Of a stretch of 64,000 nt of DNA, positions 6,001-47,377 are shown piece after piece. This DNA is from Thermoanaerobaculia bacterium. GTDB lineage: Bacteria > Acidobacteriota > Thermoanaerobaculia > Multivoradales > J023. The notes below the pieces were generated by a model that was not told the origin of the DNA, ran no database searches, and saw only the letters and a list, made by a program, of their open reading frames with translations. Made by a program: the position numbers and the translations under genes. Every line of letters begins with the position of its first letter. Position 1 is the first letter of the stretch. Location: the NCBI GenBank assembly GCA_036397835.1, contig DASWIG010000188.1:18964-82963 (forward strand). The letters are read 5' to 3'.

Positions 6001-8565
6001 CGCGCCCTCTAGCCAGAGGCGGCCCAGAGCCTGGATCAGGAAGGCGACGTCCGAGCCCGGATGTCGACCTGGGCGGACCGAGCTCAGCACGGCAGCTCGT
6101 CCTGAGTGCCCGGGATGCCGGCGCGCCAGGGTGCTCAACGTACGGCCGGGGCCCACCTCGAGCAAGATCCGGTCCGAGTCTGAAAGGAGCACCTCAAGGT
6201 TGTCGCTGAATCGCACCGTCGACCTCAGGTGCCGTACCCAGTAACTCGGATCGGTGGCCTCCGCGGGACGGATCCAGGTGCCGGTGAGATTGGAAAGGAA
6301 CGGGATTTTCGGCGGGCACAGGACGATCTCACCGAGCACGGAAGCGAACGGCTCCGACACGGGATCCATTGCCGCCGAGTGGAAGGCGTGAGAGGTGCGT
6401 AGCCGCCGGGTCTCCACTCCCCGCGCGCGCAGCTCGCTCTCGAGGTCCGCGAGCGGCTCCTCCGGGCCCGAGACCACGCATTGCCCCGGCACGTTGACCG
6501 CGGCGAGCGACAGTCCCTCCGGCATGAAAACCGCCAACGCATCCTCGGCGATCTCGACCGCCATCATCCCTCCTCTGCTCATCCCCTGCATCAGACGCCC
6601 GCGGGCGGCGACCAGCGGGAGCGCGTCCTCAAGGGTGAAGACGCCCGCCAGACACGCGGCCACGTACTCGCCGATCGAATGGCCGGCCATCGCTCGCGGC
6701 GCGATCCCCCAGTCCATCCACAGTCTGGCCAGGGCGTATTCGAAAGCGAAGAGCGAGCTCTGGGCGAGGGCGGTTTCACGCAAACGTTCCTCGGCCGCTT
6801 CCCGCGAAGGTCCCCCGCCCAGGAAGAGCGCCTCGCGCAAGTCCTCCTTCAAGTGGGGCGCGAGCAGCTCCGCGCAGCGATCGATTTCCCGCCGGAAGAC
6901 TCGTTCTTCGGCGTAGAGCTCACGTCCCATGTCCACGTACTGGGAGCCCTGGCCGGGGAAGAGGAAGGCGACCTCCCGATCGAGCTCTTCCCGGCAGCCC
7001 GTCGCCAATCGCGGCGGGTCGCCGCCGCGGAGCACGTCGAGCGCGTCGGGGACGTCCGAGCACACGGCGAAGCGCCGGTGTGGGAGACGCCGGCGGCCGA
7101 CCTGACAGGTGAACGCCACGTCGGCGAGGTCGCTGTCGCCGTTCGCTTCGAGATGGTCTGCGAGATTGCAGGTGACCGTCTCCAAGCCCGAAGCGCTACG
7201 GGCCGACGTCACGATCAGGTGCCAGGGCCTGGAGGTTCCCGAGGCCGGGCGCTCGGGCGCCTCCTCGAGCACCACGTGGGCGTTGGTGCCGCCGATCCCG
7301 AACGAGCTGACCCCGGCGCGCCGGGATCCGCCAGGCGCGGTCCACGGTCGTAGCGCCGTGTTGACGTAGAAGGGGCCCTGGTCGAGCTCGAGCCGGGGAT
7401 TCGGTGATTCGAAGTGGAGGCTCGGCGGGATGAGCCGACGATCGAGGCAGAGCGTGGTCTTGATCAAACCCGCGATGCCCGCTGCCGTGCTCAGGTGCCC
7501 GATGTTGGTCTTTACCGAGCCGAGCGCGCAGGCGTTGCGAGCGCCGTTGGTGCTGGCGAAGGCCTGGTTCAGGGCCTGGACCTCGATGGGATCCCCCAGC
7601 GGAGTCCCGGTGCCGTGGGCCTCGACGTAGGTGATCGTCTCCGGATCGATCCCCGCCAGGGTCTGAGCCGCCTGGATCACCTGCGCCTGTCCGGCGACGC
7701 TGGGCGCGGTATAGCCGACCTTCATCCCTCCGTCGTTGTTGATCGCCGTACCTTTGATGACGGCGTACACGCGGTCCGCATCGGCCAGCGCGTCGCCGAG
7801 CCGTTTGAGCACCACGACGCCCAGACCGTTGCCCCCCAGAGTCCCACGGGCTCTTTCGTCGAAGGCCCGGCAATGGCCATCGGGGGAGTAGATGCCCCCA
7901 TCGGCGTGCAAGTAGCCGCGGACCTGGGGGAGGGTCACCGACACGGCGCCGCTCAACGCGACGTCGCAATCGCCGGCCAGCAAACCCTGACACGCCATGT
8001 GGACGGCCACCAGCGCGGTCGAGCACGCGGTCTGGATGACGACGCTCGGCCCGGTCAGGTTCAGCTTGTAGGAAACCCGCGTCGCCAGGTAGTCCTTGTC
8101 GCTCGCGAGGACCGATTGATAAATCCCCACGGAGCGCAGGATCTCCGGGCGCGAGTAGAGGTTGTAGACGTAGGTATTGCGCTCCACGCCGGCATAGACG
8201 CCGATCATTCCGGGATAGGTCTGGGAGTCGCAGCCGGCGTCCTCCAGCGCTTCCCACGCACATTCCAGGAACAGGCGGTGCTGCGGGTCGGTGATCTCGG
8301 CTTCGCGGGGTGTGAAATCGAAGAAAGCGGCGTCGAAGTCCGCGACACCGTCGAGGACGGCGTTGGCTTTGACGTAGTTGGGATCGCGCAAATCGGACTC
8401 GGGAATTCCGGCCGCCGCCAGCTCCTCGTCGGAGAAAAAGGTGACGGACTCCACGCCGTGGCAGAGGTTGCGCCAGAACTCTTCGACGTTTCGCGCGCCC
8501 GGAAACCGCCCGGCCAGGCCGACGATGGCGACGTCCAGGCCTCCGATCTCTTCGTCGGCGCTCAT
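1..8565 (-). CDS. Hybrid PKS-NRPS megasynthase, partial (C-terminus beyond left edge): KS-AT(malonyl-type)-ACP-Cy-A(Cys-type)-PCP-C-A(truncated by window)
   Basis: Manual translation of the minus strand from the ATG at 8565-8563 (ATGA overlap with the TGA of the upstream NRPS at 8564-8562) gives MSADEEIGGLDVAIVGLAGRFPGARNVEEFWRNLCHGVES.... This frame has no stop down to nt 1, so the ORF track (which requires a stop) omits it; no ORF in this frame appears in the track. KS active-site Cys in TACSTALVAVHMACQ at ~8005-8050. AT GHSIGE with the His codon at 6681-6679 and HAFHS at ~6390, the signature of malonyl-CoA-specific ATs. ACP FFELGGHSLLATRL at ~5660-5700, directly after the post-AT linker (PTYPFERQRYWIE), with no KR or DH. 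Cy domain FPLTDVQQAYWLGRGGDFELGN (5401-5460) and DLLIGDAWS (~5045-5070). A domain LAYVIFTSGSTGTPKGV (~3595-3640) with the Cys-type fingerprint (SFDLSVYDVFG, WNSVPAL, LLSGDWIPV, GGATEASIWS). PCP FFELGGDSLAAIRV (~2430-2460). C domain HHIVSDAWS (~1840-1860). Second A domain LAFVYHTSGSTGAPKGV (~365-420) runs off the edge. Confidence 0.85.
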   Translation of the reverse strand, partial: MSADEEIGGLDVAIVGLAGRFPGARNVEEFWRNLCHGVESVTFFSDEELAAAGIPESDLRDPNYVKANAVLDGVADFDAAFFDFTPREAEITDPQHRLFLECAWEALEDAGCDSQTYPGMIGVYAGVERNTYVYNLYSRPEILRSVGIYQSVLASDKDYLATRVSYKLNLTGPSVVIQTACSTALVAVHMACQGLLAGDCDVALSGAVSVTLPQVRGYLHADGGIYSPDGHCRAFDERARGTLGGNGLGVVVLKRLGDALADADRVYAVIKGTAINNDGGMKVGYTAPSVAGQAQVIQAAQTLAGIDPETITYVEAHGTGTPLGDPIEVQALNQAFASTNGARNACALGSVKTNIGHLSTAAGIAGLIKTTLCLDRRLIPPSLHFESPNPRLELDQGPFYVNTALRPWTAPGGSRRAGVSSFGIGGTNAHVVLEEAPERPASGTSRPWHLIVTSARSASGLETVTCNLADHLEANGDSDLADVAFTCQVGRRRLPHRRFAVCSDVPDALDVLRGGDPPRLATGCREELDREVAFLFPGQGSQYVDMGRELYAEERVFRREIDRCAELLAPHLKEDLREALFLGGGPSREAAEERLRETALAQSSLFAFEYALARLWMDWGIAPRAMAGHSIGEYVAACLAGVFTLEDALPLVAARGRLMQGMSRGGMMAVEIAEDALAVFMPEGLSLAAVNVPGQCVVSGPEEPLADLESELRARGVETRRLRTSHAFHSAAMDPVSEPFASVLGEIVLCPPKIPFLSNLTGTWIRPAEATDPSYWVRHLRSTVRFSDNLEVLLSDSDRILLEVGPGRTLSTLARRHPGHSGRAAVLSSVRPGRHPGSDVAFLIQALGRLWLEGANVDWLAFHADESRHKVPLPTYPFERQRYWIEARRSVAVRDTEGDDAGAGEGAGPRAGVNASTEAVSRRSDVATPYLAPRGQIEREVAEVWEELLGVRPVGVHDDFFELGGHSLLATRLGERLREKTGAQVALRELLEAPTVSAMAALVGSLTPDSRGIPAGTAAWLPELVPDPDRRHLPFPLTDVQQAYWLGRGGDFELGNVATHIYVELDSHDLSVERLERAWQRLIERHDMLRAVVQPDGRQRILAAVPRFRVGILDLRRASEEARSAALDALRRSMSHQILPADRWPLFDVRASLLDHGRVRVHVSFDLLIGDAWSWDLLLSEMRLFYREPEARRPPLEISFRDYILAEESFKESSRYLAARDYWRRRVPDLAPAPDLPLAKSLSAVKRPRFVRRRGTVAAASWQRLKGRGSRLGLTPSGLVLAAFAEVLATWSRSPRFTLNLTLFHRLELHPQVNELIGDFTSLVLLEIDTAWPEPFEARARRIQNQLWDDLDHRYFSGVQVLRDLGRQGRGRGARAAMPIVFTSTLTMTDTRAGSEVSSQDRGATPQQGAGTVEFGISQTPQVYLDHQVAERQGALVFNWDVVDELFPPGMVDDMFGAFCGLLESLAEGDGAWRETHVSLVPEAQLAGRAIDAAVAPPGNELLHALFESRADEDPARDAVIAPRLTLSFGSLARRSDELGRRLRRRGARPNRLVAVVMEKGWEQVVAVLGVLKAGAAYLPVDPALPADRRRALLELGEVELAVTQPWLDEGLEWPETVSRVTVDEEEPELSADTRPEPVEIRPDHLAYVIFTSGSTGTPKGVMIDHRGAVNTILDVNRRFDVGAGDRVLALSSLSFDLSVYDVFGLLAAGGAVVVPEPGAARDPAAWAALIRRHGVTLWNSVPALLEMLVEHAAGRPDVDLSSLRLALLSGDWIPVQLPDAVREIVAGLEVISLGGATEASIWSVLYPIAAVSPWWTSIPYGRPMTNQTVCVLDHRLEPRPTWVPGDLFIGGAGLAHGYWRNEETTRKSFLSHPRSGERLYRTGDVGRYLPTGDVEFLGREDFQVKIQGHRIELGEIEAALARHPAVQSAVASAVGGERFNRRLGAWVVPQPGTEIDGEELRRHLKAILPEYMVPGSVVLLGQLPLTDNGKVDRQALPLPGEAETQSAGETAPTPVEELVAGVWSETLHLDGCGLHQDFFELGGDSLAAIRVLARIREIFGVDVVLRDLFEAPTVAGLAASVERSKRAGRALAVPPLKRVARSDRLPLSFAQHRLWFLDQLQGASHAYNVVSALRIEGELRPAVLAAALTEVVRRHEALRTGFHAAGGEPFARVAPCAPFPLSVVDLGALPTDLGERQAARLAVDHARLPFDLRRPPLLRVRLVRLADDQSLVLLSIHHIVSDAWSVGLLFAELTALYGAALRGDPSPLPEPAIQYADYAAWQRRWLQGETLRSLLAYWRARLHGAPALLELPVDRPRGTAAGTASGGWAMRFPEPQVEALRRLCRRRGATLFMGMLALFKALLSRYTGSADISVGTAVAGRGTVETQPLIGFFVNTLVLRTVFDGAFTFEDLVDRVRRVTLDAYAHEEVPFEKLVEELQPERDLTHTPLFQVMVVQQNNPRRLEQQASGTRFNALPPGGGVASRFDLTLRLGEAAGTTDATIEYRRELFDATTIHRLSRHLRHLLGEALEGSRPLSRLAFLGRGDRHQTLFEWGQPAPAPPHRHGLHELVERQAVSTPDAVAAVVGANALSYAELLRRADRLACRLRRLGVRREVRVACCCERSPELAVAQLGILKAGGAFVSLDPSHPAARHSRVLYEALAGPGPRLVVTSAQLCPRVPEAPGRILIDPRGRPHGRGEPVPAAVRFGADSGTDAADLAFVYHTSGSTGAPKGVMASHHAAVSYLVDLIRRCRLGARDTVLQVAAASFDASVRDVLGPLAAGARVVFPERAALGDPAAQLADLVRHKASAVLSAVPTLLRSWLLTPPPSSGAALRLMLLSGEPLRASDIVRARE
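4150..5470 (-). other. Heterocyclisation (Cy) domain following the PKS ACP
   Basis: Cy signature motifs FPLTDVQQAYWLGR (5401-5460) and DxxxxDxxS (DLLIGDAWS) in place of HHxxxDG; followed by a Cys-type A domain. Confidence 0.8.
6080..8565 (-). other. KS-AT didomain of the leftmost PKS module (KS ~7290-8565; AT ~6080-7050)
   Basis: KS N-terminus IVGLAGRFPGA...FW..L and active-site Cys TACST (~8040); AT GHSIGE (6681) and HAFHS (6390). Approximate domain limits. Confidence 0.8.
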
Positions 8566-11500
8566 CGGCGAGTTCCTGTCGGCTGTCGGGCTCGGCGTCG
8601 GCTGAGCCGCTCTCTGCCGGCTCGCAGCCCGGCGAGGTGCTTGCGGCGCCGCTCCTCAGCCCGCGGATCGGGGGAAGCGCGATCGAGGTGCGCCGCCAGG
8701 CTGGCGATCGTCGGGTATTGAAAGAGCTCGATCAGCGTCACTCGGTCGTCGATCTGGTCGCGCAGCTTGCCATGGACCCGGAGCAACAATAACGAGTGTC
8801 CGCCGAGGTCGAAGAAACTGTCGTGGATGCCGACCTGGTCGAGGCCGAGCTCTTCCCGCCAGATCCGTGCCACGGCGCGCTCGACCCGGTTGCCCGGGGC
8901 GCGGTACGCCGTCGCAAGCTCGGGCCTGGCGCCGTCCGGCTCGGGCAAGGCATTGCGCGCGACCTTTCCGCTGGAGGTGAGAGGCAGCGCGTCGAGGTGG
9001 ACGAAGGTCGCCGGGACCATGTGCTCGGGCAAGCGTTTTCTGAGGTCCGCGAGGAGTGCCGCGTCGGCGGCCGGCCGGCCGTCGTTGGACACCACGTAGG
9101 CGACCAGGCGCTGGTCCCCCGGAGCCGTCTCGCGGACCACCGCCACGGCCTGCCGTACCCCGGGCTGCTCCTCGAGAGCCGCTTCGATCTCGCCGAGCTC
9201 GATCCGGAAACCCCGCAGCTTGACCTGGAAGTCCAGACGGCCGAGGTACTCGATAGCGCCGTTCGTGCCGAAGCGAGCCCGGTCACCGGTCATGTAGAGG
9301 CGGCCCCCGGGCTCGATTGCCGCGGGATCGGGCACGAATTTCCCGGCGCTCAGCGCCGGGCGGGCGAGGTAGCCGCGGGCAAGTCCCATACCGCCGATGC
9401 AGAGCTCGCCGGCGACGTTGATCGGGACCGGTCGCAGCTCAGCGCCGAGGATCAGGATTCGGGTATTGGCGATCGGCCGGCCGATCGACACCCGGCTCAG
9501 CGCCGGCGGGCAGGCCCATGAGGTGACTTCGACGGCGGCCTCGGTCGGACCGTAGAGGTTGTGAAGCTCGGCCGCGAGACGCTGGCGGAAACGGCCCACG
9601 ACGTCGGGCGTGAGGCTCTCGCCGCTGGCGATCACTCTTCGTACGCTGCGGCAACGCTCGAGCTCCGGCTGCTCCAGGAACACCCGAAACATCGACGGCA
9701 CGAAATGCAGGGTCGTGACGTCGTTCCGAGAGATCAGGCCGGCCAGGTAGGAGCCGTCCTTGTGCCCCTCGGGACGCGCGACGACCAGACGTGCTCCGGT
9801 GATGAGCGGCAAGAAAAGCTCCCAGACCGAGACGTCGAAGCTGAATGCCGTCTTGTGCAGAATCTTCTCGTCGGCGCTGATGCGGTGGGCGTCCTGCATC
9901 CACCGTAGCCGGTTGCAGATCGCTCGATGCGTGTTGACCACGGCCTTGGGCTTGCCGGTCGATCCGGAGGTGTAGATGACGTAGGCCGGGCTGTCGGGAT
10001 CGGCGCCGGCCCGCGGAGCGGGCGGTTGGAGCGGCTCGGTCTCCGGACGGAGGGCGTCGAGCCTCAAGGCCGGAATCCGAAGATTCTCCGGTACCGGGAC
10101 GCCGGCCAAGAGCACTTTCACCCCGGCGTCTTCGAGCATGAAGGCCAACCGCTGCTCGGGGTAGCCGGGCTCGAGCGGGAGGTAGGCGGCGCCCGACTTG
10201 AGCGTACCGAGCAGAGCGACGACCATCTCGATCGAACGCTCGGCGCAGACTCCGACCACCTCTTCCGGACCGGCGCCCAGCACGCTCAGATCGCGGGCCA
10301 GTCGGCTCGCCTTCGAGTCGAGCGCGCGGTAGCTCAGCCACCGGCCCTCGAAGGTGAGCGCCACCGCCTCGGGCGAGCGCTCGGCCCGCTCCTCGACGAG
10401 CTCGTGGAGCAGCCCCGAGGCTCGGGGAATCGCCGTGTCGTTCCACTCTCTCAGCAACTGCTGCCGCTGCGCCTCGCCGATCAGCGAAAGGCTTTCGATC
10501 TCGGCGCCAGGCCGTTCGACGATTCCTTCGAGCAGCCGGGCGAGGTGGCCCCACAACCGCCGCGCCGTCGTGGCGTCGAACAGATCGGTCTTGTACTCGA
10601 TGTAACCGTGCAGACCTGCCCTTTCCTCGCCGATCGCCAGGGTGAGGTCGAAGCGGGACGTGCCGTTGCTGACCGCCATCATTCGCAACGTCATACCGGG
10701 CAGCTCGCGGGGCTCCGGCGCGGCGTTCTGGAAGACGAACATCACCTGAAAGAGCGGAGAGTGCCCCAGATCTCGCCGGGGCTGAAGCTCTTCAACCAGT
10801 TTCTCGAACGGCAGGTCCTGATGCTCGTGAGCACCCAGCATGGCCTCCCGCACCTGCGCCAAGAGCTCGACGAAAGTCATACTCCGGGCGAGCACGCCAG
10901 GAACAACCAACGTATTGACGAACATTCCGATCAGGTTCTCCGTTTCCGGCCGGATACGGCCAGATACCGGAATTCCGATGCACAGCCTCTCTTGCCCCGA
11001 GTAACGCGCTAACAGCAGCTCGAAAGCTCCCAGGAAGATCATGAAGAGAGTGGCCCCCTCTCTGCGGCCGAGCCTGCGGAGCGCATCGGTCAGGTCGCCG
11101 GGCACGCCGAAGAACCTGCGCGTTCCGCGCACGGTCGTCACCGGTGGTCGGGGACGGTCGATCGGAAGGTCCAGCACCGGGAAAGAGTTGCCCAGGCGGC
11201 GCCGCCAGAACTCCAGACGCTGCGCGAGCAACTCGCCGCGCATACGCGCGCGTTGCCAGACGGCAAAGTCGGCATACTGGGCAGATAGCTCAGCGAGCTG
11301 CGGCGCCCGACGGTCTCGGTACGCCTGGTAGAGCTCCCGCAGCTCACGGGTCAGGACGTCGAACGACCAGGCATCGCAGACGATGTGATGAATCGTCATC
11401 ATCAGTACGTGCTCGTCGAGGCTCAAGCGCACGAGGCTTCGGCGCCACAACGACCCCTGCGCCAGGTCGAACGGCAATCGTGCCATGCTCGTGAACAGTC

Positions 11501-13685
11501 TCGCCACGACCTGTTCGCGGATGGCGGGCTGAATCGTGCAAAGATCGACGATGGCGAGCGGCGAGGACGCGGCGGCGCGCGCTGCCTGCACCGGTTCCCC
11601 GTTCTCTAGCAGAAACGCCGTTCGCAAGATCGAGTGACGAGCCGTGATCTCGTTCAAGCTCCGCTCCAGCGCCGCCGGGTCGAGCTCGCCTTGGAGGCGC
11701 AAACCCAGAGGCAAGTTGTAGAGCGAGCTACCCGGAGTAAGCCGGTCCAAGAAGAGGAGCCGTTCCTGGGCGAAAGACAGGGGAATCCGCTCCTGCGGAG
11801 AGAGCCGCGGCAACGGCTCGAACCGAGCAACCGCTGGGCCTTCGTTACAGCGCAGTTTCTCGATCGCGTCCGCCATGCCTGCGATGGTCTCGGTCTCGAA
11901 GATCTGGTTCATGGGTATCTGAGTACCGAGAATCTGCGTCACACGGCCCAGCATCCGCAAGGCGGTCAAGGAGTGCCCGCCGAGATCGAAAAAACTGTCA
12001 TGGATGCCAACCATGTCGACTTGCAGGACCTCGGCCCAGATCTGCGCCAACAATTGCTCCACGACGGTGCGCGGCTCGCCGCCGGAAGGCGTAGCGCCGC
12101 TCGACTCGAGAGACGAGGGGTCGGGCAGGGCCAGCCGATCGATCTTGCCGTTCGCCGTTTTCGGCAGCTCGTCGAGTTGGACGTAGACAGAAGGAACCAT
12201 CGGCTCCGGCAGATCCTCCGCCAGGAAGGCGCGCAGCTCGGCGATCGCTACTGCACGCCGCGCAGCAAAGTAAGCGCACAAGTAGAGCGTCCCGGTCCGG
12301 TCCCCACGAGCCACGACCGCCACCTCTCGGATCTGCTCGTGGTCCAACAGACGATTCTCTACCTCCGTCACCTCGACGCGCACGCCACGGATCTTCACCT
12401 GCTGGTCCTTGCGGCCCATGAGCTCGAAATTACCATCGGGCTCTATGCGCCCCAGGTCGCCGGTGCGATAGACCACGTCGTTGGGATCGCGGCTGAAGGG
12501 GTTCCTGGTGAAGACCGCGGCCGTCAGCTCCGGCTTGCCGAAGTAACCCAGGCTGCAATAAGGCGTGCGGATCAGGATCTCTCCCAATTGACCTGGGGAG
12601 CACGGACGGTCCACCTCGTCCACGACCACGGCTCGCGCTCCGTGCATCGGCTTGCCGATGGGCACGGTGCGGCGATTCTTGTCCGCAGGCTTGACGAAGT
12701 AGAAGAACTTCGTCATAGTGGTCTCGGATGGGCCGTAGAGATTGACCAGTTGCACTCGGTCGCCACGGAGGCTCGTCCATTTCTCAACGTCCGAGGGCAG
12801 CAAATGCTCACCAGCCAGCAGCACGAATCGTAGCGCATCGAAGCCACGCGGCTCAAGAGCGGGATCGAGAATCGTGCGGAACAGAGACGGCACGGCGTGT
12901 ACGACTTCGAGCCGCTCGGCATCGATCCAATCGACGAGAGCCTGGGCGGTCAGCGAGGTTCCTCTTCCCGGGGGCACACAAACGGTGCCGCCGACCGCAA
13001 GCGGAACGAAGACGTCGCGCAAGAAGGCGTCGAAAGCGAAGTTCGTCAGTTGACTTACACGTACGCCGGACTCGATCCCCAGCGTGTCGACCTCCCAGCC
13101 GACATAGTGATCGATGGCCTTGAGGCGGCCGGAAATGCCCTTCGGCTCTCCGGTCGAGCCGGAGGTGAAATAGATGTAACAGATCTGGTCGGGATCGGCG
13201 TCTCGGAGCCGGCGCTGCGGTTCCCAGTAGTCGTCGGCACGATGGCTGTACCGGCCCGTCTCCATGACGCGCAGGCTCCGTCCCGACTGGGCCAGAACAC
13301 CCAGCGCGACCTGCGGAAAGCCCTCGGGGAGGCAGCCGTCCAACGCCTCAACGAGGTCAACGGCGGCCAGGAAACCCGAGGGTTGGGCCGTTAGAATCAT
13401 CGATTCGAGCCGCCGCCGAGGCAGGCGAGCATCGAGCGGCACGAAAACGGTCCCGGACTTGAGGCACCCGATGACTGCCGTGATCGCATCGACGGGATCA
13501 GTGCAGCAAACGCCGATCCTGTCGCCGGCCTTGATGCCGCGAGAAAGAAGGAAGTTGGCAACATTGCTCGACCGGTCGTCGAGATCGGCGTAGCTCACTC
13601 GTGCCTGCGCCGTGTCGATGGCGGTCGCCGATCGGTGACGGTCCACCGCTCGGCAGAATATGCGGTCAATGCTTTCGAATGCCAT
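8562..13685 (-). CDS. NRPS, A-PCP-C-A-PCP (~1707 aa); ends with PCP that hands over to the downstream KS
   Basis: The ORF track extends the start to a TTG at 13715, but an ATG at 13685-13683 lies 4 nt after the upstream gene's TGA (13692-13690: ...ctgTGAgataATGgca...) and gives N-terminus MAFESIDRIFCRAVDRH, a normal A-domain start. A cores ICYIYFTSGSTGEPKGI and AYVIYTSGSTGKPKAV; PCPs FFDLGGHSLTALRM and FFDLGGHSLLLLRV; C domain LSFAQERLLFL...HHIVCDAWS. Stop TGA at 8564-8562 overlaps the ATG of the next gene (ATGA). Confidence 0.85.
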   Translation of the reverse strand: MAFESIDRIFCRAVDRHRSATAIDTAQARVSYADLDDRSSNVANFLLSRGIKAGDRIGVCCTDPVDAITAVIGCLKSGTVFVPLDARLPRRRLESMILTAQPSGFLAAVDLVEALDGCLPEGFPQVALGVLAQSGRSLRVMETGRYSHRADDYWEPQRRLRDADPDQICYIYFTSGSTGEPKGISGRLKAIDHYVGWEVDTLGIESGVRVSQLTNFAFDAFLRDVFVPLAVGGTVCVPPGRGTSLTAQALVDWIDAERLEVVHAVPSLFRTILDPALEPRGFDALRFVLLAGEHLLPSDVEKWTSLRGDRVQLVNLYGPSETTMTKFFYFVKPADKNRRTVPIGKPMHGARAVVVDEVDRPCSPGQLGEILIRTPYCSLGYFGKPELTAAVFTRNPFSRDPNDVVYRTGDLGRIEPDGNFELMGRKDQQVKIRGVRVEVTEVENRLLDHEQIREVAVVARGDRTGTLYLCAYFAARRAVAIAELRAFLAEDLPEPMVPSVYVQLDELPKTANGKIDRLALPDPSSLESSGATPSGGEPRTVVEQLLAQIWAEVLQVDMVGIHDSFFDLGGHSLTALRMLGRVTQILGTQIPMNQIFETETIAGMADAIEKLRCNEGPAVARFEPLPRLSPQERIPLSFAQERLLFLDRLTPGSSLYNLPLGLRLQGELDPAALERSLNEITARHSILRTAFLLENGEPVQAARAAASSPLAIVDLCTIQPAIREQVVARLFTSMARLPFDLAQGSLWRRSLVRLSLDEHVLMMTIHHIVCDAWSFDVLTRELRELYQAYRDRRAPQLAELSAQYADFAVWQRARMRGELLAQRLEFWRRRLGNSFPVLDLPIDRPRPPVTTVRGTRRFFGVPGDLTDALRRLGRREGATLFMIFLGAFELLLARYSGQERLCIGIPVSGRIRPETENLIGMFVNTLVVPGVLARSMTFVELLAQVREAMLGAHEHQDLPFEKLVEELQPRRDLGHSPLFQVMFVFQNAAPEPRELPGMTLRMMAVSNGTSRFDLTLAIGEERAGLHGYIEYKTDLFDATTARRLWGHLARLLEGIVERPGAEIESLSLIGEAQRQQLLREWNDTAIPRASGLLHELVEERAERSPEAVALTFEGRWLSYRALDSKASRLARDLSVLGAGPEEVVGVCAERSIEMVVALLGTLKSGAAYLPLEPGYPEQRLAFMLEDAGVKVLLAGVPVPENLRIPALRLDALRPETEPLQPPAPRAGADPDSPAYVIYTSGSTGKPKAVVNTHRAICNRLRWMQDAHRISADEKILHKTAFSFDVSVWELFLPLITGARLVVARPEGHKDGSYLAGLISRNDVTTLHFVPSMFRVFLEQPELERCRSVRRVIASGESLTPDVVGRFRQRLAAELHNLYGPTEAAVEVTSWACPPALSRVSIGRPIANTRILILGAELRPVPINVAGELCIGGMGLARGYLARPALSAGKFVPDPAAIEPGGRLYMTGDRARFGTNGAIEYLGRLDFQVKLRGFRIELGEIEAALEEQPGVRQAVAVVRETAPGDQRLVAYVVSNDGRPAADAALLADLRKRLPEHMVPATFVHLDALPLTSSGKVARNALPEPDGARPELATAYRAPGNRVERAVARIWREELGLDQVGIHDSFFDLGGHSLLLLRVHGKLRDQIDDRVTLIELFQYPTIASLAAHLDRASPDPRAEERRRKHLAGLRAGRERLSRRRARQPTGTRR

Positions 13686-13689
13686 TATC

Positions 13690-16600
13690 TCACAGGGCCT
13701 CGCAGAACCCTGCAAGGACCGTGTCCTCTTCCGCTTCGCTCAGCAGCGACAACTGCGAAAGGCGCAGGGTGGGGTCGTCGACCATTTTCTGCATGAGCTC
13801 CCGGTAGTGGAGGTGGAGGCGTTCAATTGCGGGCCGGTCGTAGATATCGGTGCTGTACTCCGTAGCGACCACCAATCGGCGGCCCGCCGCCGACACGAAG
13901 AGCGTCAGGTCGAAGTTGGCGGAGACCCGCTCGGTCCCGATCGTCCTCAGGACGAGGCCAGGAACCCGTGTCGGAGGCTGCGGGACGTCTTGGAACGAGA
14001 ACTTGGCCTGGAAGAGGCCCTGGCCTTCTGCCCGACGTCTCCCCTGGAGATCCTCCAGGACTCGCTCATAAGGAACGTCCTGGTGGGCGTAGGCCTCGAG
14101 CGCCACCTCCCGGACGCGTTTCAGGACCTCGCGAAAGCTCGGGTCCCCCGTCAGGTCGCTGCGCAAGACGAGGATGTTGGCGAAATAGCCGATCGTCTCC
14201 TCGAGCTCCCGGCGCCGGCGATTGGCGACGTTGGTGCCGACCGCGATGTCGCGCTCCCCCGTGTAGAGAGCCAAGAGCACCTTGAAGGCCGCGACCATGG
14301 TCATGAAGAGGGTGGCGCCCTCCTGCCGGCTGAGCGCTCGGAGGCTCGCGGCGAGCCGCTCTGAAAGCTCGATCTGCGCCACCGCGCCTCGAAACGTCGG
14401 TCTGGTGGGCCGCCCGCGGGCGCCGGGAAGGTGGAGGATCGGGGGAGCGGTTTTCAACCGCCGGCGCCAGTAGGCCAACTGCGCCTCGAGGACGTCGTGG
14501 CTCAGCCAGCGCCGTTGCCACCGCGCGAAGTCGGGATACTGAACGAGGGCGTCCGACGCCGGGGCGGGCCGGCCCTCGATCCGGGAGCTGTAGAGACGGA
14601 CGATCTCGGCCACCAGGACCGCCATCGACCAGGCGTCGGAGACGATGTGGTGCATCGAGAGGACCACCGCGTGCTCCTCCGGTGCCAGGCGCAAGACGCA
14701 GACTCTGAGCAGAGGAGCGCGAGCGAGGTCGAAAGGGAGATCCAGCAGCTCCCGGATCCGGCGCTGGGACTCCCGGCCGCGGAGAGGCTCGGCCAGGGCC
14801 GTGAGGTCCAGAACCGGCAGCAATGACCTCCATTCGGAAGAGACGATCTGTGCGACCTTGTCGCCGTCCTCGACGAAGGTGGTGCGCAGCGCGTGGTGGC
14901 GGCGGCTCGCCTCGTCGAAGGCGGCGTGGAGAGCGGCAAGGTCCAGGCTCCCTTCGAGGCGTACGAGAGCGGGGATCTTGTAGCCGAGACGGTTCGCGTC
15001 GACCCGGTGGAGGAACCACATGCGCTCCTGGGAGTGGGACAGCGGCATTCGCGTTCCCGGGGGGAAACGCTCGATCGGCTCGGACTCGATGGCCGGGATG
15101 TGCGCCGTGCTTCTCGCATCTTCGATCTCCGCAGCGAATTTCGCCAGCGTGGGCGCCTCAAAAAGGCTCCTCAACGGGAGCTCGATTCCGAAGGTCTCGC
15201 GGACCCGCGATATCACCTGGGTAGCGAGGAGCGAATGGCCGCCGAGAGCGAAGAAGTCGTCCTCGCTCCCGAGCCCTTCAAGCCCCAGGACCTCGCCCCA
15301 GATACCGGCGAGCAGCTCCTCGGCCGGAGCACGGAGAGGCTCGCCGGCTCTGCGTCGGCCGGCCGCGGACCTCGTCAGGAGCTCGGCTTGGATGGAGGCG
15401 CGGTCCAGCTTGCCGTTCGCGGTGACCGGCAGGGCGTCCATCGTGACGATGGTGGAAGGGACCATGTAGTCGGGGAGCTTGCGGGTCAGGAAGCGGCGGA
15501 TTTCCGGGACCTCGGGCACCGCTCCGATCGACGGGACGATGCAGGCGGCGAGGCTCTTGTCCTCGGAGGCATCCGTGACGACGACAGCCACCGCCTCGTG
15601 AACGGCCTCGTGCCGGCACAGGACGTTCTCGATCTCTCCCAGCTCGATGCGAAAGCCTCGGATCTTCACCTGTTGATCGAGGCGTCCCAGGAACTCGAGG
15701 GTTCCTCCCGGCCAGAAACGGCTGCGGTCTCCGGTCCTGTAAAGGCGTCCTCCCCGCCGCTGGCCGAATGGATCCGGGATGAACTTCCGGGCGCTCAACA
15801 CCGGCTCGGAGGCGTATCCCGAGGCCAGGCACTGCCCGCCGATGAAGAGGTCGCCGGGCACCCCGGCGGGGCAGGGCTCGAGCGTTGCATCGAGCACGTA
15901 GTAACAGGCGTTGTCGATCGGCCGGCCGTAAGGAATGCTCCGCCACCGCGGGTCCACGGCGGTGACGACGTGGAAATTCGACCACACCGTGGCTTCGGTG
16001 GCGCCCCCGAGCGCGACGAGCCGGGCTGCGGGAAAAACTCTCCCGAGCCTGGCCGGCAGCGTCGTCGGGACCCAGTCGCCGCTCAGGAAGACGAGCCGCA
16101 GGCACGCCGTGGACAGGCCGTCTTCAGGCAAGAAGGGGATGAGCTGCTGCAACGCCGCCGGCGCCGAGTCCCAGAACGTGACCGGCTCCTGGGCCAGCAG
16201 GCGGGCGAGCTCGGCAGGCTCGCGGACCTCTTCGTTCGAGGCCACCCGCACCGAACCGCCGGCGGCGAGCACGCCGAAGACGTCGTAGACCGACAGATCG
16301 AACGACACCGACGTGACGAAGAGAATGCGGTCCGCCGGCCCCACGTCGAAGGTCCGGTTGACCCATCGGATGAGGTTGATTACCGGACCGTGACGGACGA
16401 CGACGCCCTTCGGCGTCCCGGTCGTGCCCGAGGTGAAGATGGTATACGCGAGGTCCGCAGCGCTCGCCGTCACGGCGGGGCTCCAGGTCGGTCGCCGCTC
16501 CAGGTCGCGGGCACTCGAGACCCGCGCCTTCCCTCCGGACCTTCCCCGGGCCCGTAACGTGCCCTCGGTCGCCTCCGCGTCCGCGACGACCAGGTGCTCG

Positions 16601-18390
16601 AGCCCGAAATCCTCTTCCAGGACTCGTTCCCAGGTCTCGAGCAACGCCGCGCTCGTCACGGCGCAAGTCACGCCGATCGAGCGCAGGATCCAGCGAGCCC
16701 GCTCGACCGGGTAGGTCGGGTCGAGAGGGACGTAAGCCGCCCCCGCTTTGAGAATGCCGAGCAGCGCGACGATCATCGCGGGCGATCGGTCGAGCAGGAT
16801 CGCCACCGGCGCCCCACGGCCGACCCCCAGCGACACCAGGTGATGGGCCAGCCGATTGGCCTCGGCGTCGAGGGCGCCGAAGCTCAGCGTCGACTCGGCT
16901 GTCGTCACGGCGGCCGCGTGCGGCCGCCGGCGTGCCTGCGCTTCGAAGATCTGGTGGATCGAGGTGTCCCCCACGCCCTTCCGGCCGGTATCCTGCCACT
17001 GGACCAGGGCTTGCTGACGCTCAGCCTGCGTCAGCATCGAAAGGTCACGCAGCCGCCCGTCTTGCGCCCGCGGCATGCCCTCGAGCAGCGCCGTGAGGTG
17101 TCTCAGCATGCGATCGATCGTCGCGTCGTCGAAGCGGTCACGAGGATAAAGGGCTCGCAGCGCCAGGCCTGGACCCGGCGTAACCATGAGGCTCAGCGCA
17201 TAGCCCGACTTCGGCTCGTAGCGCACGGAGCCCAGAGCGAGACGACCGGATCGCGCGGACTGCGGCAGCCGTTGGCTCGGCCCCTGGAACCAGGGAACGT
17301 TCTCGAACACCAGGATGCTCTCGAACAGGGGAGCGCGGCCGCGCACCTCGCTCCAGCCCTGAACCTCGGCGAGCGGGCTGTGCTCGTAGCGCCGGATGCG
17401 GAGCTGCTGTTCCTGGAGCTCGCCGAGCCAAGGCAGCACAGGCACCGCCGGTCCGAGGCGTACCCGTACCGGCAGAGTGTTGATGAAGAGCCCGACCATG
17501 GACTCGACACCCGGCAGGTCGTCGGGACGCCCGGATACCGTGGCGCCGAATACGACGTCCCGCTCGCCGCCGCTGTAGCGATGCAGGAGCAAGCTCCAGG
17601 CACCGCGCAAAAGACTGCTCAGGGTCAGCCGGTGTCGCCGCGCCATCCCTTCCACCTCCGCGGTCGCGGCGGCGGACACCTGGCGAGTGGCGCCGCGATA
17701 TCCGCTGCCGCGAAGGTGGTCTCGCTGCGGCACTCGGTCGACGTGGAGCGAGGTGGCCGAGCGCACGCCGGCAAGCTCCCGGCGCCAGAAGGCCTCGGCC
17801 GCGTCGAGCTCCTGCCGGCGCAGCCAGGAAACGTAGTCCCGGTACGGACGCGCCTCGCCGAGGGACGGTGGGCGGCCCGCCCGCAAGGACTCGTAGAGCT
17901 CGTGGAAGTCGCGGAGCACGTGCGAGAGGGACCAGGCGTCCATCAGAATGTGGTGATAGCTCAGTAGGCACTGATACTCCTCGGGAGCGTGGCGGATCAG
18001 CGCGACCCGCAGGAGCGGTGCCTTCGAGAAGTCGAATCCGCGCTTGCGATCCTCTTCGAGGTACCTCCGCAGCCGCTCTTCCCTGGCGGCCGGTTCGCTC
18101 GGCGCCCAGTCATGCGCCTCGAAGAGCAGCCTGACGCGCCGCAGCACGAGCTGGATTGGAGCGTCGCGGCGTCTCCAGGAAAACACCGTCCGCAGCGCGC
18201 CATGACGCCGCAGGTTTTCTTCCCAGGCACGGCGGAACACCTCGACGTCGATGCCACCGGGAGCCGTGACGTCGAAGATCACCTGATCGTGATAGAGCCC
18301 GGCCTCCGGATCGTAGAGGGCATGAAAAAGCATGCCCTGCTGCAGGGGCGAAAGCGGATAGATGTCCTCGATGTTATTCGTCTTCTTCAT
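13690..18390 (-). CDS. NRPS, C(DCL-type N-terminal motif)-A(Cys-like fingerprint)-PCP-C (1566 aa)
   Basis: ATG at 18390 (ATGAAGAAGACGAATAAC = MKKTNN), overlapping the TAA of the upstream gene by 17 nt. N-terminus IEDIYPLSPLQQGMLFH and HHILMDAWS; A core AYTIFTSGTTGTPKGV with SFDLSVYDVFG, LSGDWVP, GGATEATVWS, WRSIPYGRP; PCP FFALGGHSLLATQV; second C LSHSQERMWFL...HHIVSDAWS. The protein ends with a C domain, and the next gene begins directly with an A domain. Confidence 0.85.
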   Translation of the reverse strand: MKKTNNIEDIYPLSPLQQGMLFHALYDPEAGLYHDQVIFDVTAPGGIDVEVFRRAWEENLRRHGALRTVFSWRRRDAPIQLVLRRVRLLFEAHDWAPSEPAAREERLRRYLEEDRKRGFDFSKAPLLRVALIRHAPEEYQCLLSYHHILMDAWSLSHVLRDFHELYESLRAGRPPSLGEARPYRDYVSWLRRQELDAAEAFWRRELAGVRSATSLHVDRVPQRDHLRGSGYRGATRQVSAAATAEVEGMARRHRLTLSSLLRGAWSLLLHRYSGGERDVVFGATVSGRPDDLPGVESMVGLFINTLPVRVRLGPAVPVLPWLGELQEQQLRIRRYEHSPLAEVQGWSEVRGRAPLFESILVFENVPWFQGPSQRLPQSARSGRLALGSVRYEPKSGYALSLMVTPGPGLALRALYPRDRFDDATIDRMLRHLTALLEGMPRAQDGRLRDLSMLTQAERQQALVQWQDTGRKGVGDTSIHQIFEAQARRRPHAAAVTTAESTLSFGALDAEANRLAHHLVSLGVGRGAPVAILLDRSPAMIVALLGILKAGAAYVPLDPTYPVERARWILRSIGVTCAVTSAALLETWERVLEEDFGLEHLVVADAEATEGTLRARGRSGGKARVSSARDLERRPTWSPAVTASAADLAYTIFTSGTTGTPKGVVVRHGPVINLIRWVNRTFDVGPADRILFVTSVSFDLSVYDVFGVLAAGGSVRVASNEEVREPAELARLLAQEPVTFWDSAPAALQQLIPFLPEDGLSTACLRLVFLSGDWVPTTLPARLGRVFPAARLVALGGATEATVWSNFHVVTAVDPRWRSIPYGRPIDNACYYVLDATLEPCPAGVPGDLFIGGQCLASGYASEPVLSARKFIPDPFGQRRGGRLYRTGDRSRFWPGGTLEFLGRLDQQVKIRGFRIELGEIENVLCRHEAVHEAVAVVVTDASEDKSLAACIVPSIGAVPEVPEIRRFLTRKLPDYMVPSTIVTMDALPVTANGKLDRASIQAELLTRSAAGRRRAGEPLRAPAEELLAGIWGEVLGLEGLGSEDDFFALGGHSLLATQVISRVRETFGIELPLRSLFEAPTLAKFAAEIEDARSTAHIPAIESEPIERFPPGTRMPLSHSQERMWFLHRVDANRLGYKIPALVRLEGSLDLAALHAAFDEASRRHHALRTTFVEDGDKVAQIVSSEWRSLLPVLDLTALAEPLRGRESQRRIRELLDLPFDLARAPLLRVCVLRLAPEEHAVVLSMHHIVSDAWSMAVLVAEIVRLYSSRIEGRPAPASDALVQYPDFARWQRRWLSHDVLEAQLAYWRRRLKTAPPILHLPGARGRPTRPTFRGAVAQIELSERLAASLRALSRQEGATLFMTMVAAFKVLLALYTGERDIAVGTNVANRRRRELEETIGYFANILVLRSDLTGDPSFREVLKRVREVALEAYAHQDVPYERVLEDLQGRRRAEGQGLFQAKFSFQDVPQPPTRVPGLVLRTIGTERVSANFDLTLFVSAAGRRLVVATEYSTDIYDRPAIERLHLHYRELMQKMVDDPTLRLSQLSLLSEAEEDTVLAGFCEAL

Positions 18391-31489: not shown

Positions 31490-31824
31490 GGCGACAGGCT
31501 GTGTAGCGACAGGCTGTGTAGCGACAGACCGTGTATCGACCCCCAAGTCGTCTCCTTCATGCCTGGGCCTCCGGATACACCGACAACGTCGCCGGCCGTC
31601 CTCGTGGCCGCCGACGGACCCACGCTGACCATCAGTGGCCCCTATCCTACCCGGCCGTCTTTCCGGGCGCAAGAGCGCCCCCGGCCTCCGCGCTGAATCG
31701 GCGCCGTCGGGCGGACTCGCGCTTCGCCTTCGACGCGATCCCTGGTAGCCTTGGGCCTCCGAAGCGCTCGGCGGGCTGGGGACCCGCAGCCGGCCCTCGG
31801 GGCGCTCTGGGTTGGTAGCGCCGG
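31490..31824. promoter_or_regulatory. Divergent intergenic/promoter region between the giant NRPS operon (-) and the glycosyltransferase-like gene (+)
   Basis: ~335 nt with no credible coding frame (both overlapping track ORFs are R/P/G-rich). Contains the tandem 15-mers and a second direct repeat, TGGGCCTCCG, at 31564-31573 and 31752-31761. No -35/-10 consensus assigned. Confidence 0.5.
31492..31536. repeat. Three tandem 15-bp direct repeats: CGACAGGCTGTGTAG (31492-31506), CGACAGGCTGTGTAG (31507-31521), CGACAGACCGTGTAT (31522-31536), plus a partial fourth copy CGACCCCC
   Basis: Read directly from the sequence. Lies immediately upstream of the putative GTG start of the giant NRPS, inside the divergent intergenic region. 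Confidence 0.9.
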
Positions 31825-32968: not shown

Positions 32969-35900
32969 CTAGAAGGCGAAATCGTCGTCGAGCTCCTCCA
33001 CGTGGATCGGCGTCGCGAGGGCGGCCGTCTCCCGCCGCGAAAGCACGTCGAGCTTGCTCAGCCGCGCCTCGGGGGTCGCGACGATGCTCTCCAGCAGGCG
33101 CCCGAACCGGTCGAGAAGATTGCGAATCGTCATCGGGCTGAAGAGGTCCCGGCTGTACTCGAGCTCGCCACGAAGGCCGTCCGGGCTCGGCCACACGTTC
33201 ATGAGCAGGTCGAATTTGGCGCTCCGTCTCTTGATCCTGAATCCGCTGAGCTGCAGGCCTGGAAGCTGCAAGGGCACGGAAGGCGCGTTGAGCAGTGAGA
33301 ACACCACCTGGAACAGCGGGTTGTAGCTCGGATCGCGCTCTGGTTGGAGCTCTTCCACGAGCTTCTCGAAAGGCGTGTCCTGATGGCCATAGGCATCGAG
33401 CGTCGACTCGCGTATCCGCGCGAGGAACTCAGTGAAAGGCGGATCGTCGATCAGCTCCACCGGCAACAGGAGCATATTGACGAAAAAGCCGACCAGGGGC
33501 TCGACTTCGGTCCGCGTCCGGTGCGCCACGTTGGTCGCCACGACGAATCTCCGCTGTCCCGAGTGCCGCCAGAGCAGCAGGTCGAACGCCGCCAGGAGCG
33601 TCATGAAAAGCGTCGCTTGGTTCTCGCGGCTCAGGCTCTCGAGCCGCAGGGTGAGGTCTCGTGAGAGCTGAACGTTCTCGGCCGCGCCGCGAAACGACGG
33701 CACCGGCGGCCGTGGGTAGTCGGCGAGCCCGGCGAAGAGGCGCGGGATCCCCTCGAGGCGTTCACGCCAGTACTTCAGCTCACGCTCCAACACTTCTCCG
33801 CGCAGCCAGTTCCGCTGCCAGCGGGCGTAGTCGCGGTACTGGAGCGGCAGGTCAGGGAGCAGCCGAGCCGCTTCGGCGAGGCCGGCTCCTCCCTTGAAGG
33901 CAGCGTAGAGCGTCTTCAGCTCTCCCGCGATGATCGCCTGAGACCAGGCGTCCGAGACGATGTGGTGCTGAGTCAGGAGGACGACGTGAAGTCTCGCGGC
34001 GAGGCGCACCAGGGTGATGCGAACCATCGCGCCGCGGGCCAGGTCGAACGGCCTGGCGGCCTCCGACTCCGCCAGGCGGACAAGCTCGGCGTCGCGGTCC
34101 GGCTCACGGAGCGAGCTCAGGTCGGCGACGGGGAGGTAGGAAGGCCTGATGGGACCGACGACCTGCACCGGCTCGCGGCCGTCGGAGGCCTCGATGGTCG
34201 ACCGGAGCACCTCGTGGCGCCGAAGGATCTCTCTCAGGCTCGCCGCGAGAGCCGTGACGTCGAGGTGCCCCTCGAGCCGCAGCGCTCCGTTCACGTTGTA
34301 GGCCGAGCTGGCGCCCCGCAACTGGCTCAGCCACCACAACCGCTGCTGGGCGAAGGAAAGCTCTGCCGAACGGGCTGTGGGATCGGCAAGGATGGCGGGC
34401 GGCGCCGGCGCGTCGCCACGCCTCATTCGGGCGATCTCGGCGCTGAGCTCCTCCACCGTCGGGTGCTCGAAGAGCTGGCGCAAGCCCACCTCCACCCCGA
34501 GGCTCCGACGAAGCCGGGAAACCACCTGCGTGGCGAGCAGGGAATGGCCGCCAAGGTCGAAGAAGTTGTCGTGGGGGCCGAAAGGCTCGATGCCGAGCAC
34601 GTCAGCCCAGATTCCCGTCACCAGCTCCACGATGGGAGTCCGCGGAGTCGCCGGCGACACGGTCTGCGGCGTGACCTCCGGAGGCGGCAACGCCCCCCGG
34701 TCCACTTTGCCGTTGCGATTCAGGGGCATCCTTTCCAGGAAGACCAGCGCCGACGGGACCATCGGATCGGGGAGGCGCTCGCGCAGGAACCGGTTCAGCT
34801 CCTCTCGGCTCGGCGCCGCGGCGGGAGCCACCACGTAACCCGCCAGCCTCGGATTCCCGGCGCCGTCGCGGGTCAGCACGGCCAACGCTTCACGCACCGC
34901 TGGATAGGCGGCAAGAGCCGCTTCCACCTCGCCGAGCTCGACGCGGAATCCGCGGATCTTGACCTGCTGATCGGCTCGGCCCAGATACTCCAATCCGCCG
35001 TCGGCGAGACGACGGGCAAGGTCGCCGGAGCGGTACAGGCGAGCGCCGGCCCGCTTGCTCCAGGGATGGGGAACGAAGCGCGAAGCGGTCAAGCCCGGGC
35101 GGTTCAGATACCCCCGGCTCAAGCCTTCGCCGGCTACGACGATCTCCCCCGTGACCCCAAGGGGAAGCACGGCCAGCGCCGCGGAGACGAGATGGACCTC
35201 GAGGTCCGGAAGCGGCCCGCCGATAAGACTTCCGCCGACTCTCCTGGCGGTGTGAGCCCGCCTGATCGGCAGCACCGTGACGTGCACGGTCGTCTCGGTG
35301 ATGCCGTACATGTTCACCAGCACGGGGCTCGACTCCCCGTGCCGATCGAGCCACGGGCGAAGTGAGCCAAGATCCAGGGCCTCGCCTCCGAAGATCACCC
35401 GCCGCAGAGCCAGCGCTCCGGGCTCGGCGACGTCGCGAAGGCTGCGAAAGGCCGAAGGAGTCTGATTGAGCACGCACACGCGTTCTCGCACCACGAGAGA
35501 ACAAAGCTCCTCGTGGGAGCGACTCGTCCAATACGGCACCACCACCAGGCGGCCGCCGTGAAGGAGAGCCCCCCACAGCTCCCAGACCGAGAAGTCGAAA
35601 GCGTAAGAGTGAAAAAGGGTCCAAGTGTCGCCGGAATGGAAGCCGAACCAGGGCCGCGTGGTCTCGAAGAGCCGCACGACGTTGTGGTGGGTCACCACCA
35701 CGCCCTTCGGTTCACCCGTGGAGCCCGAGGTGTAGATCACGTAGGCGGCCCGATGCGACTTGGGCGAGGTGTCCGGCCGGCACCTGTCAGGCTCTGCCGC
35801 GGGCCATCGGTGATCGAGATGGATCCTGCGCACACCGCTTTCCGACAGCTTCGGCGCGAGGGCGTCGGTCGTCAGCAACGCGGCGATGCCGGAGTCCTCG

Positions 35901-47362: not shown

Positions 47363-47377
47363 GGGCTCTCTCCGCGA

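Follow-up and report, generated by a model that had tools for sequence, protein, structure and literature searches.

The stretch of DNA analysed here, referred to as the window, comprises 64,000 nucleotides of a Thermoanaerobaculia bacterium (contig DASWIG010000188.1 of assembly GCA_036397835.1) and encodes a hybrid nonribosomal peptide synthetase (NRPS) and polyketide synthase (PKS) assembly line, whose large genes are all on the minus strand in DNA with a G+C content of 69%; the features below are on that strand unless stated otherwise. Our subject is the junction between two of its genes, orfF (13690..18390, 1566 aa) and orfG (8562..13685, 1707 aa), where a protein ending in a condensation (C) domain is followed by one that begins directly with an adenylation (A) domain. 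Read on the minus strand, the junction is ...GGG TTC TGC GAG GCC CTG TGA gata ATG GCA TTC GAA AGC, in which the TGA stop of orfF (13690..13692) is followed by the 4-nt spacer gata (13686..13689) and by the ATG start of orfG (13683..13685). The two genes are in different frames, with 7 nt separating the T of the TGA and the A of the ATG. The coordinates and quoted residues of the initial annotation proved right on re-reading, as did its view that the start assigned by a mechanical list of open reading frames (ORFs), a TTG at 13715 that creates a 26-nt overlap with orfF, is an over-extension; on the five metagenome contigs described below, the gene callers pick the ATG, 4 nt past orfF, giving a 1707-aa product, and the N-termini of homologues agree with this choice. 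A candidate, weak Shine-Dalgarno element, GAGG (13698..13701), proposed from the sequence only, is located 12 nt before the ATG, within the 3' end of orfF, and comparable purine-rich elements also precede the orthologous orfG starts.

According to the ORF list, Pfam and a phmmer domain map, orfF has the architecture C-A-T-C, where T is the thiolation (carrier) domain, and its Pfam order is Condensation, AMP-binding, AMP-binding_C, PP-binding and a second Condensation. This C-terminal C domain (aa 1111-1566; 13693..15060) is full length and LCL-like: the match to PF00668 runs from aa 1115 to 1556 and covers profile positions 5-453 of 456, and the domain aligns over its whole length with other C domains in the window. 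Its active-site motif, HHIVSDAWS at aa 1247, retains HHxxxDG with the G replaced by A, as also occurs in several C domains of the window. Comparison with the internal linkers of the window identifies its last stretch, LSLLSEAEEDTVLAGFCEAL (13693..13752), as the C-side half of a C-A linker.

The second protein, orfG, is assigned the architecture A-T-C-A-T by Pfam, the domain map and the gene calls. Its first A domain (A1, aa 1-525; 12111..13685) belongs to a clade whose members start their proteins and is complete, with both Acore and Asub and with D235 and K517 both present in its specificity code, DARHLALMTK. It aligns by phmmer from residue 13 (query position 7) to residue 519 against a 522-aa A-domain query and scores 353.6 with TIGR01733, whose cut-off is 317.4. 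The first T domain (T1, aa 542-612; 11850..12062), with its GGHS core at aa 565, is the presumed in-trans acceptor for the terminal C domain of orfF, as collinearity would have it. A subunit starting with a ketosynthase (KS) domain begins 4 nt before the stop of orfG.

The position of the cut was defined relative to the fused C-A linkers of the same window, LVQWQDTGRKGVGDTSIHQIFEAQ and LLREWNDTAIPRASGLLHELVEE. The orfF stop falls 4 residues past the aromatic residue of the W-N-x-T motif (VLAGFCEAL and stop, compared with the internal LLREWNDTA, where F is the equivalent of W), the tail GFCEAL being the counterpart of the canonical EWNDTA and of the type [SAGD]-F-[NSCM]-x-[DEA]-L-[ED], while orfG starts about 4 residues ahead of the I-x-x-[IL]-F start of its A domain (MAFESIDRIF). 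If tail and head were joined, they would form a linker of 6 residues, as against 8 in the window's own fused linkers. Judged by these alignments, nearly the whole C-A linker is retained and is cut mid-way, without extension on either side. The break coincides with W]-[NATE, the exchange unit (XU) fusion or splice point within the C-A linker (PMC8362031), and synthetic type S NRPSs are split at the same C-A linker site (PMC10443035).

Neither orfF nor orfG carries a dedicated terminal extension of about 15-60 aa that could serve as a docking domain, and there are 0 residues after the aligned C domain of orfF. Pfam and inspection of the sequence revealed no helix-hand, TubC_N-like or PAX element at the junction, and inspection likewise revealed no coiled coil or high-affinity zipper. 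The docking classes described in a review of NRPSs are only COM, PAX and β-hairpin, with no class for C/A junctions (PMC9113145).

The terminal C domain of orfF was compared with 1.84 billion representative proteins, the question being how often its close relatives are C-terminal. The best 150 matches were all giant proteins (3,662-7,929 aa) with 4-8 matching C-type domains each, and their summed scores dominate the ranking. The domain scores 404-340 bits when compared with ordinary internal C domains, and 428 and 412 bits are reached only against its two orthologues. A special subtype of C domain was considered and ruled out, as the scores are equally high against ordinary internal domains and against terminal ones. 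The best 120 matches to the whole of orfF are query-biased and mixed with epimerization (E) domains and contig-truncated proteins, and they serve only as leads (P0018, P0041 and P0046).

The A domain on the other side of the junction gives a different picture. We searched the first 530 residues of orfG against a collection of 5.8 billion proteins and analysed the best 120 matches, which have 46-52% identity and are A-T (about 610-660 aa), A-T-TE (about 890 aa; TE, thioesterase) or short A-T-C proteins. All 120 start within 16 residues of the orfG start, and 117 of them within 2 residues, which again favours the ATG over the TTG. Among solved structures, a search of the PDB gave LgrA and generic NRPS A domains as its top matches and no close relative that was informative. 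Specificity codes were read from alignments to GrsA-PheA, for which the procedure returned DAWTIAAICK as a control. The orfG domain fits the clade code D-[AGP]-R-H-x-A-L-[ML]-x-K, and its DARHLALMTK is also present at loci L012, L013 and L020; the corresponding codes are DARCLALMTK at L006, DARHFALMVK at L007, DARHLSLMVK in the A-T of L009 and DARHFALMTK at L010.

To place these domains in their genomic context, we used the clade alignment as the query in a scan of one genome per GTDB species, with domains mapped on stop-to-stop segments, and obtained 79 loci. At a threshold of at least 370 bits, 22 relatives have context information, 17 of them genome loci from the scan and 5 from earlier metagenome or genome contigs. 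The A domain is N-terminal in 21 of these 22 relatives, and in 14 of them the upstream gene on the same strand ends in a C domain. Eleven of these 14 genes stop 2-14 aa past the C domain, most with a tail like that of orfF (the xFNxDLE type), and longer acidic tails are present in the other three (two Halanaerobiales loci and one Bacillota locus); tails matching that of orfF occur in its orthologues and in the partners of the same A-T clade. Between the C-ending gene and the A-T are 0-3 genes for an asparagine synthase (AsnB), an Asp-type racemase, a TauD protein, a MupA-type luciferase-like monooxygenase (LLM) or a Cupin_8 protein, and at least one such tailoring gene intervenes in most relatives. 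For example, the order is C, AsnB, A-T, C-A-T-C at L009 and C, 129 nt, A-T-C at L010; L011 and L012 are further examples of a C-ending gene followed by an A-T, the NCBIfam neighbours at L012 being an asparagine synthase, an asp_race family racemase and a MupA/Atu3671 LLM.

The hosts of the clade in the Acidobacteriota are Pyrinomonadaceae, Blastocatellia, Ca. Angelobacter and Holophagales, and beyond this phylum they include Mastigocoleus testarum (Cyanobacteria, L011), Streptomyces sp. CB02058 (Actinomycetota, L024) and Bacillota, with more distant members (below 370 bits) in Bacteroidota. Outside the clade, the A domain is fused to a preceding C domain in 43 of the 62 loci below 370 bits, which, together with the lack of a matching class in the docking review (PMC9113145), bears out the initial annotation in regarding C/A breaks as unusual. 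The split is, however, less a property of this assembly line, as that annotation suggested, than of the A-T clade to which the first module of orfG belongs, which is N-terminal in many phyla. As a separate observation, the gene most regularly associated with the clade is AsnB, immediately before the A-T, and it is more constant than the C-ending gene (L016, L017, L026, L031, L020, L024 and others); precursor supply, amidation of a carrier-bound acid and lactam formation are among its possible roles.

The split is also found unchanged in other assemblies and at the same place in divergent clusters. The exact orfF protein is encoded on five metagenome contigs (JGI samples 3300037515, 3300037704, 3300037705 and 3300037751, and ENA ERZ27256989), each with the pair of genes for 1566 and 1707 aa, and the 201 nt spanning the junction are identical in all five assemblies, the contigs differing elsewhere by 0-3 single-nucleotide polymorphisms. 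Orthologues with 53-54% identity are separate genes at L006 and at L007, a metagenome-assembled genome (MAG) of Acidobacteriota (GCA_040349255.1), where 1.3-3 kb of other genes separate the two halves: L006 has F (1537 aa), a Cupin_8 gene on the opposite strand and G (1701 aa), and L007 has F (1532 aa), LLM, AsnB and G (1681 aa). When aligned, the C-termini of the F proteins are ..LAGFCEAL in the window, ..LAASFSEDLE at L006 and ..LEGFSDDLEDF at L007, and the N-termini of the G proteins are MAFESIDRIF, VSFESIDKL.. and MSFESVQEL.., respectively, placing the cut at the same linker residue, within 3 aa, in the window and in the two orthologous clusters. Because the termini of the orthologues align at the same cut, the split is older than the divergence of these clusters, and a boundary kept both here and throughout the A-domain clade exceeds what chance would give. 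The identical junction in five assemblies, the common cut and the inserted genes confirm the earlier claim of a genuine C/A protein boundary without a frameshift, and the similar C/A splits that were to be sought in related clusters are present at L006, at L007 and across the A-T clade.

Based on these data, we consider it very likely that orfF and orfG constitute one NRPS elongation module, naturally and anciently divided within the C-A linker. In the mechanism we propose, orfG would be translated by coupling to orfF across the 4-nt spacer, A1 would load the T1 of its own protein, and the terminal C domain of orfF would condense, in trans, the peptidyl chain carried by the T domain of orfF with the amino acid loaded on the T1 of orfG, which would then hand the chain to the KS-starting subunit. 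No COM, PAX or β-hairpin docking would be involved; since docking elements were not found at the junction, recognition would have to use the native C:A/T surfaces, perhaps with the help of the two retained linker halves, the tail ...GFCEAL and the head MAFESIDRIF. The C:A unit has been described as a "core platform" of NRPSs (PMC10510592).

Several points weigh against this division of one module between two proteins. The association of orfF with orfG and the acceptor role of T1 rest on assumed collinearity, and the sequence of the terminal C domain of orfF carries nothing that would mark it as acting on the carrier domain of another protein. The five contigs may all come from a single study site, and JGI reads could have been reused in the ENA assembly, which limits their independence. 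No AsnB, racemase, TauD or LLM gene is found at the orfF/orfG junction of the window, where the spacing is 4 nt. With respect to the substrate, an A1-type specificity code was not found in the searched literature, and the assignment given below is drawn from a comparison with codes of other systems (McyB2, McyE and bacterial ACVS). Among the relatives, the upstream protein at L031 has no terminal C domain, L008 has the same tail type without a downstream A-T or NRPS gene, and a second DxRH copy at L019 is fused to a C domain, so a fused state of the clade exists. The association between a C-ending gene and the A-T is strong, yet not obligatory. Locus L019 (Blastocatellia MAG CAWDRU.. / CAVSKO010000003.1, 1-13200) contains two DxRH A-domain copies, of which the first is N-terminal, follows a C-ending gene, AsnB and racemase, and is seemingly interrupted by a frame change near 7980; the linker joining the second copy to its C domain lacks the W-N-x-T motif.

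Among the alternatives, the one that survives best is that the terminal C domain of orfF releases its chain onto a soluble amine, hydroxyl or other acceptor, and that orfG is the starter of a second, separate chain. A-T is the usual architecture of a starter module, releasing C-terminal C domains are known (for example putrescine-adding ones, PMC10587159), L008 shows that the tail type can occur without an NRPS gene downstream, and the divergent operon break at 31489-31825 means that the line is transcribed as more than one unit. These arguments are countered by the 4-nt spacing, which implies co-expression, and by the fact that at least 14 relatives likewise have an A-T gene after a C-ending one. 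At L009, L011 and L012, moreover, the A-T is preceded by a protein ending in C and followed by one starting with C or by a stand-alone C domain; this order keeps collinearity only when the A-T serves as acceptor for the upstream C domain. Finally, orfF has no TE or reductase (R) domain, and orfG ends in a T domain and runs directly into the KS-starting subunit. We therefore regard two separate chains as unlikely, albeit the most serious competitor of a single divided module.

Far less credible is the view that the boundary results from an artefact or from recent damage, such as an indel introduced in sequencing or assembly or a new frameshift mutation, splitting a single C-A-T-C-A-T-C-A-T protein. 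The ORFs are indeed 4 nt apart and one frame off, and the joined linker, at 6 residues in place of 8, would be nearly normal, as after a single-base indel. However, the junction is identical in the five assemblies, the orthologues share the cut with whole genes inserted between the halves, and the A1 clade begins its proteins, both among the 120 best matches and in 21 of the 22 relatives, which leaves this explanation with next to no probability. Equally negligible is a programmed +1 frameshift or stop bypass at GAGG CC CTG TGA producing a fused F-G protein, whose likeness to the RF2 (prfB) site, with its Shine-Dalgarno-like element just upstream of CUU UGA, is superficial (GAGG 2 nt upstream of CUG UGA, with the downstream frame at +1), since re-pairing of CUG in the +1 frame (UGU) is not possible, a slippery sequence is missing, a proper ATG is present at the position of the clade's conserved N-terminus, and the 1.3-3 kb of other genes between the orthologous ORFs make fusion impossible there.

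Returning to the divided module, its substrate and its persistence can be addressed more speculatively. The DxRH-type code of A1, together with the Asp-type racemase and Asn-synthase genes beside its relatives, suggests an acidic amino acid of the Asp, Glu or 2-aminoadipate (Aad) type, possibly D-configured or side-chain-linked and maybe tailored. The code appears to resemble those of the microcystin modules for methylaspartate (MeAsp; McyB2) and D-Glu (McyE) and of the Aad module of bacterial ACVS; the MeAsp code is tentative, as McyB (8hlk) ranked low among the structures matching A1. The residues in question, MeAsp and D-Glu in microcystin and Aad in ACVS, are acidic amino acids joined via the side-chain carboxyl. 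More speculatively still, the split may persist because the A-T evolved as a free-standing platform for tailoring in trans by AsnB, TauD, LLM and cupin proteins before condensation; in the window, where the junction lacks such genes, only the split would remain.

It is possible, although we give this proposal less credence than its converse, that the orfF/orfG junction is an instance of a widespread natural equivalent of the type S or XU split, a portable cassette in which an ordinary C domain with a short xFNxDLE tail communicates in trans with a dedicated N-terminal A-T, free of docking domains, and an acidic residue is tailored on the carrier by AsnB, racemase, TauD or LLM enzymes. The A-T units of such a system may be recognisable by the head motif M-x-x-x-S-[IV]-[QHD]-x-[LIW]-F and the code DxRH, with a residue that is possibly D-configured or side-chain-linked. 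That the tail and the head form a genuine minimal docking code is similarly doubtful.

The junction can be compared with several known systems. Subunits that end in C or Cy (heterocyclization) domains and are followed by A-starting subunits occur in non-linear NRPSs, namely those of bleomycin (BlmIV/BlmIII) and of viomycin and capreomycin (VioA-VioI-VioF-VioG and CmnA-I-F-G), and this arrangement is what they share with orfF and orfG. In sequence, however, they show only a generic NRPS domain relationship to the junction studied here; in many phyla, the cut seen here goes together with the DxRH A clade, with a recurring tail of the xFNxDLE type and with neighbouring genes for AsnB, racemase, TauD and LLM. 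In the PDB search, CmnG aligned as an A domain beginning close to its N-terminus, and CmnI is a T domain with a C-terminal C domain (PMC12400406).

The type S NRPSs and XUs of Bozhueyuek, Abbood and Bode are cut at the same position, W]-[NATE, giving A-T-C units (PMC8362031; PMC10443035). In the optimisation of type S NRPSs, activity is restored by keeping native linker residues (PMC10443035), and both native linker halves are likewise kept at the orfF/orfG junction. Type S NRPSs need SYNZIP leucine zippers, whereas no interaction domain has been added to the natural pair, whose tail ends 0-14 residues past the C domain and whose head lies at the A domain, so that the analogy is one of position only. 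Junctions of the COM, PAX or β-hairpin type (T/C and E/C), of which the window has examples at 44137/44156 and 18374/18390, perform the same ordered hand-over between polypeptides, but there the break is between modules, whereas between orfF and orfG it is inside a module.

A-T modules encoded apart from their C domain have been reviewed (PMC8949500). The free-standing A-T didomains SyrB1/SyrB2, Alb04, CysH and Ramo17 resemble the closest homologues of orfG A1-T1, which are A-T proteins that also stand alone, with tailoring genes as neighbours. In those systems, the amino acid is shuttled, and the assembly line retains a T domain (SyrE C-T-TE) or an A domain that lacks activity. In contrast, orfF ends in a C domain without a following T domain of its own, for which reason the carrier of the A-T would have to be the acceptor, and the A-T of orfG is fused to a further C-A-T.

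A split between C and A is thus an uncommon but already known kind of arrangement, and the searched literature yielded nothing specific that describes this cassette or states how rare C/A boundaries are. What is new here is that the junction belongs to a conserved, phylogenetically broad cassette that is cut at the XU point used by engineers. For annotation, this means that gene callers and tools for biosynthetic gene clusters should neither "repair" the boundary nor read orfG as a starter module, and any prediction of the peptide order for this hybrid cluster of the Acidobacteriota type requires the terminal C domain of orfF and the A1-T1 of orfG to be counted as one module. For NRPS biology, it means that a C domain and its A-T can remain apart in the long term, in clusters about 54% identical and in several phyla, without docking domains being added, and the natural split bears on how much of the C:A "platform" must be covalent (PMC10510592). 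In genome mining, the cassette can be recognised as a C-ending gene, genes for AsnB, racemase, TauD or LLM, and an A-T with a DxRH code. If tail and head were indeed a specific recognition code, they would provide a minimal connector, of natural origin, with which NRPSs could be split at the C-A linker.

Three subunits of the window (orfB, orfD and orfF) end in catalytic C domains, the one in orfB having been missed in the initial annotation, but a clean C/A cut is present only between orfF and orfG. The junction at 44137/44156, which had been described as a further case of a C-terminal C domain, is a canonical T/C boundary, where the last domain of orfC (44156-47362) is a T domain, followed by an acidic tail, and orfD opens with a basic N-terminus followed by a C domain. 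The case proposed at about 31489/32969 stands in part: orfD, whose end is at 32969, does terminate in an active C domain (32972..34363; HHIVSDAWS, tail ...EELDDDFAF), but orfE, for which gene calls start at 31489, opens beyond a GT2-like gene with only the C-terminal half of a C domain (30767..31474), without the HH motif region, followed by an A domain with an Asn-like code, and hence offers no clean C/A cut. The GT2-like gene (Pfam Glyco_tranf_2_4; 31825-32895, plus strand) is divergent from orfE, with about 335 nt of intergenic sequence (31490-31824), and its position between orfD and orfE means that at least two operons encode the assembly line. At the boundary of orfE and orfF (18374/18390), an E-like domain with an acidic tail is followed by a C domain.

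The PKS-NRPS protein of orfB has its terminal active C domain at 48565..49863 (HHLVCDRFS; orfB end 48424) and the basic tail RRELASRERRRKPV; in the databases, many C-A-T-C-A-T-C proteins terminate in similar basic tails (LKxIKRK type). A TauD gene (47378-48337) is located between orfB and orfC, directly upstream of orfC, whose N-terminal C-like domain (46397..47317) has LTALQADSRG in place of HHxxxDG and precedes an A-T with the odd code SSRDLTMMVK, which lacks Asp235. The region from orfB through TauD to orfC (44156-49863) resembles an arrangement of C domain, β-hydroxylase and interface domain-A-T, and a C-tail, TauD, C-A arrangement is present at L022. Modules of this kind, with a stand-alone TauD-type β-hydroxylase and an "interface" (inactive C-like) domain, were reportedly described by Reitz et al. 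in 2019, a study cited by antiSMASH 8. The likeness consists of the TauD gene directly upstream of an NRPS with an N-terminal C-like domain lacking HHxxxDG, and it is assigned by arrangement and not by an interface-domain profile, such a profile not being among the Pfam or NCBIfam families.

The remaining subunits have further features. In orfE (18374-31489), an A-less C-T module is followed by Cy-A(Cys)-T-Cy-A(Cys)-T, in which the second A domain has an embedded nitroreductase-type Ox domain; the Cy block, of a bithiazole- or thiazoline-forming kind, is reminiscent of bleomycin. Judging from its domain content, the A-less module must presumably be loaded in trans by an A domain located elsewhere. 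The E-like domain at the end of orfE has its second catalytic His replaced by Arg (HRLAADAASW), in addition to the acidic tail, and the N-terminal C domain of orfF has a start of the PLSPLQQGMLFH type, which is usual after E domains and fits the E-like end of orfE. The A domain of orfF has the code DLYDFSLVWK, near, but not identical, to the Cys code DLYNLSLIWK that is found twice in orfE.

In orfA (56400-63869), the second A domain has a Gly-like code, DILQLGVI-K, and an embedded luciferase-like monooxygenase (Bac_luciferase, aa 1721-2042). A monooxygenase embedded in an A domain is the arrangement of myxothiazol-type MOX modules; in orfA, it is not at the end of the line. A Methyltransf_21 gene (55464-56387) separates orfA from the PKS, which is encoded by orfB (48424-55467) and has the Pfam order KS, acyltransferase (AT), ketoreductase (KR), dehydratase (DH; PKS_DH_N/PS-DH), acyl carrier protein (ACP) and C, with the dehydratase after the ketoreductase, the usual order being KS-AT-DH-KR-ACP.

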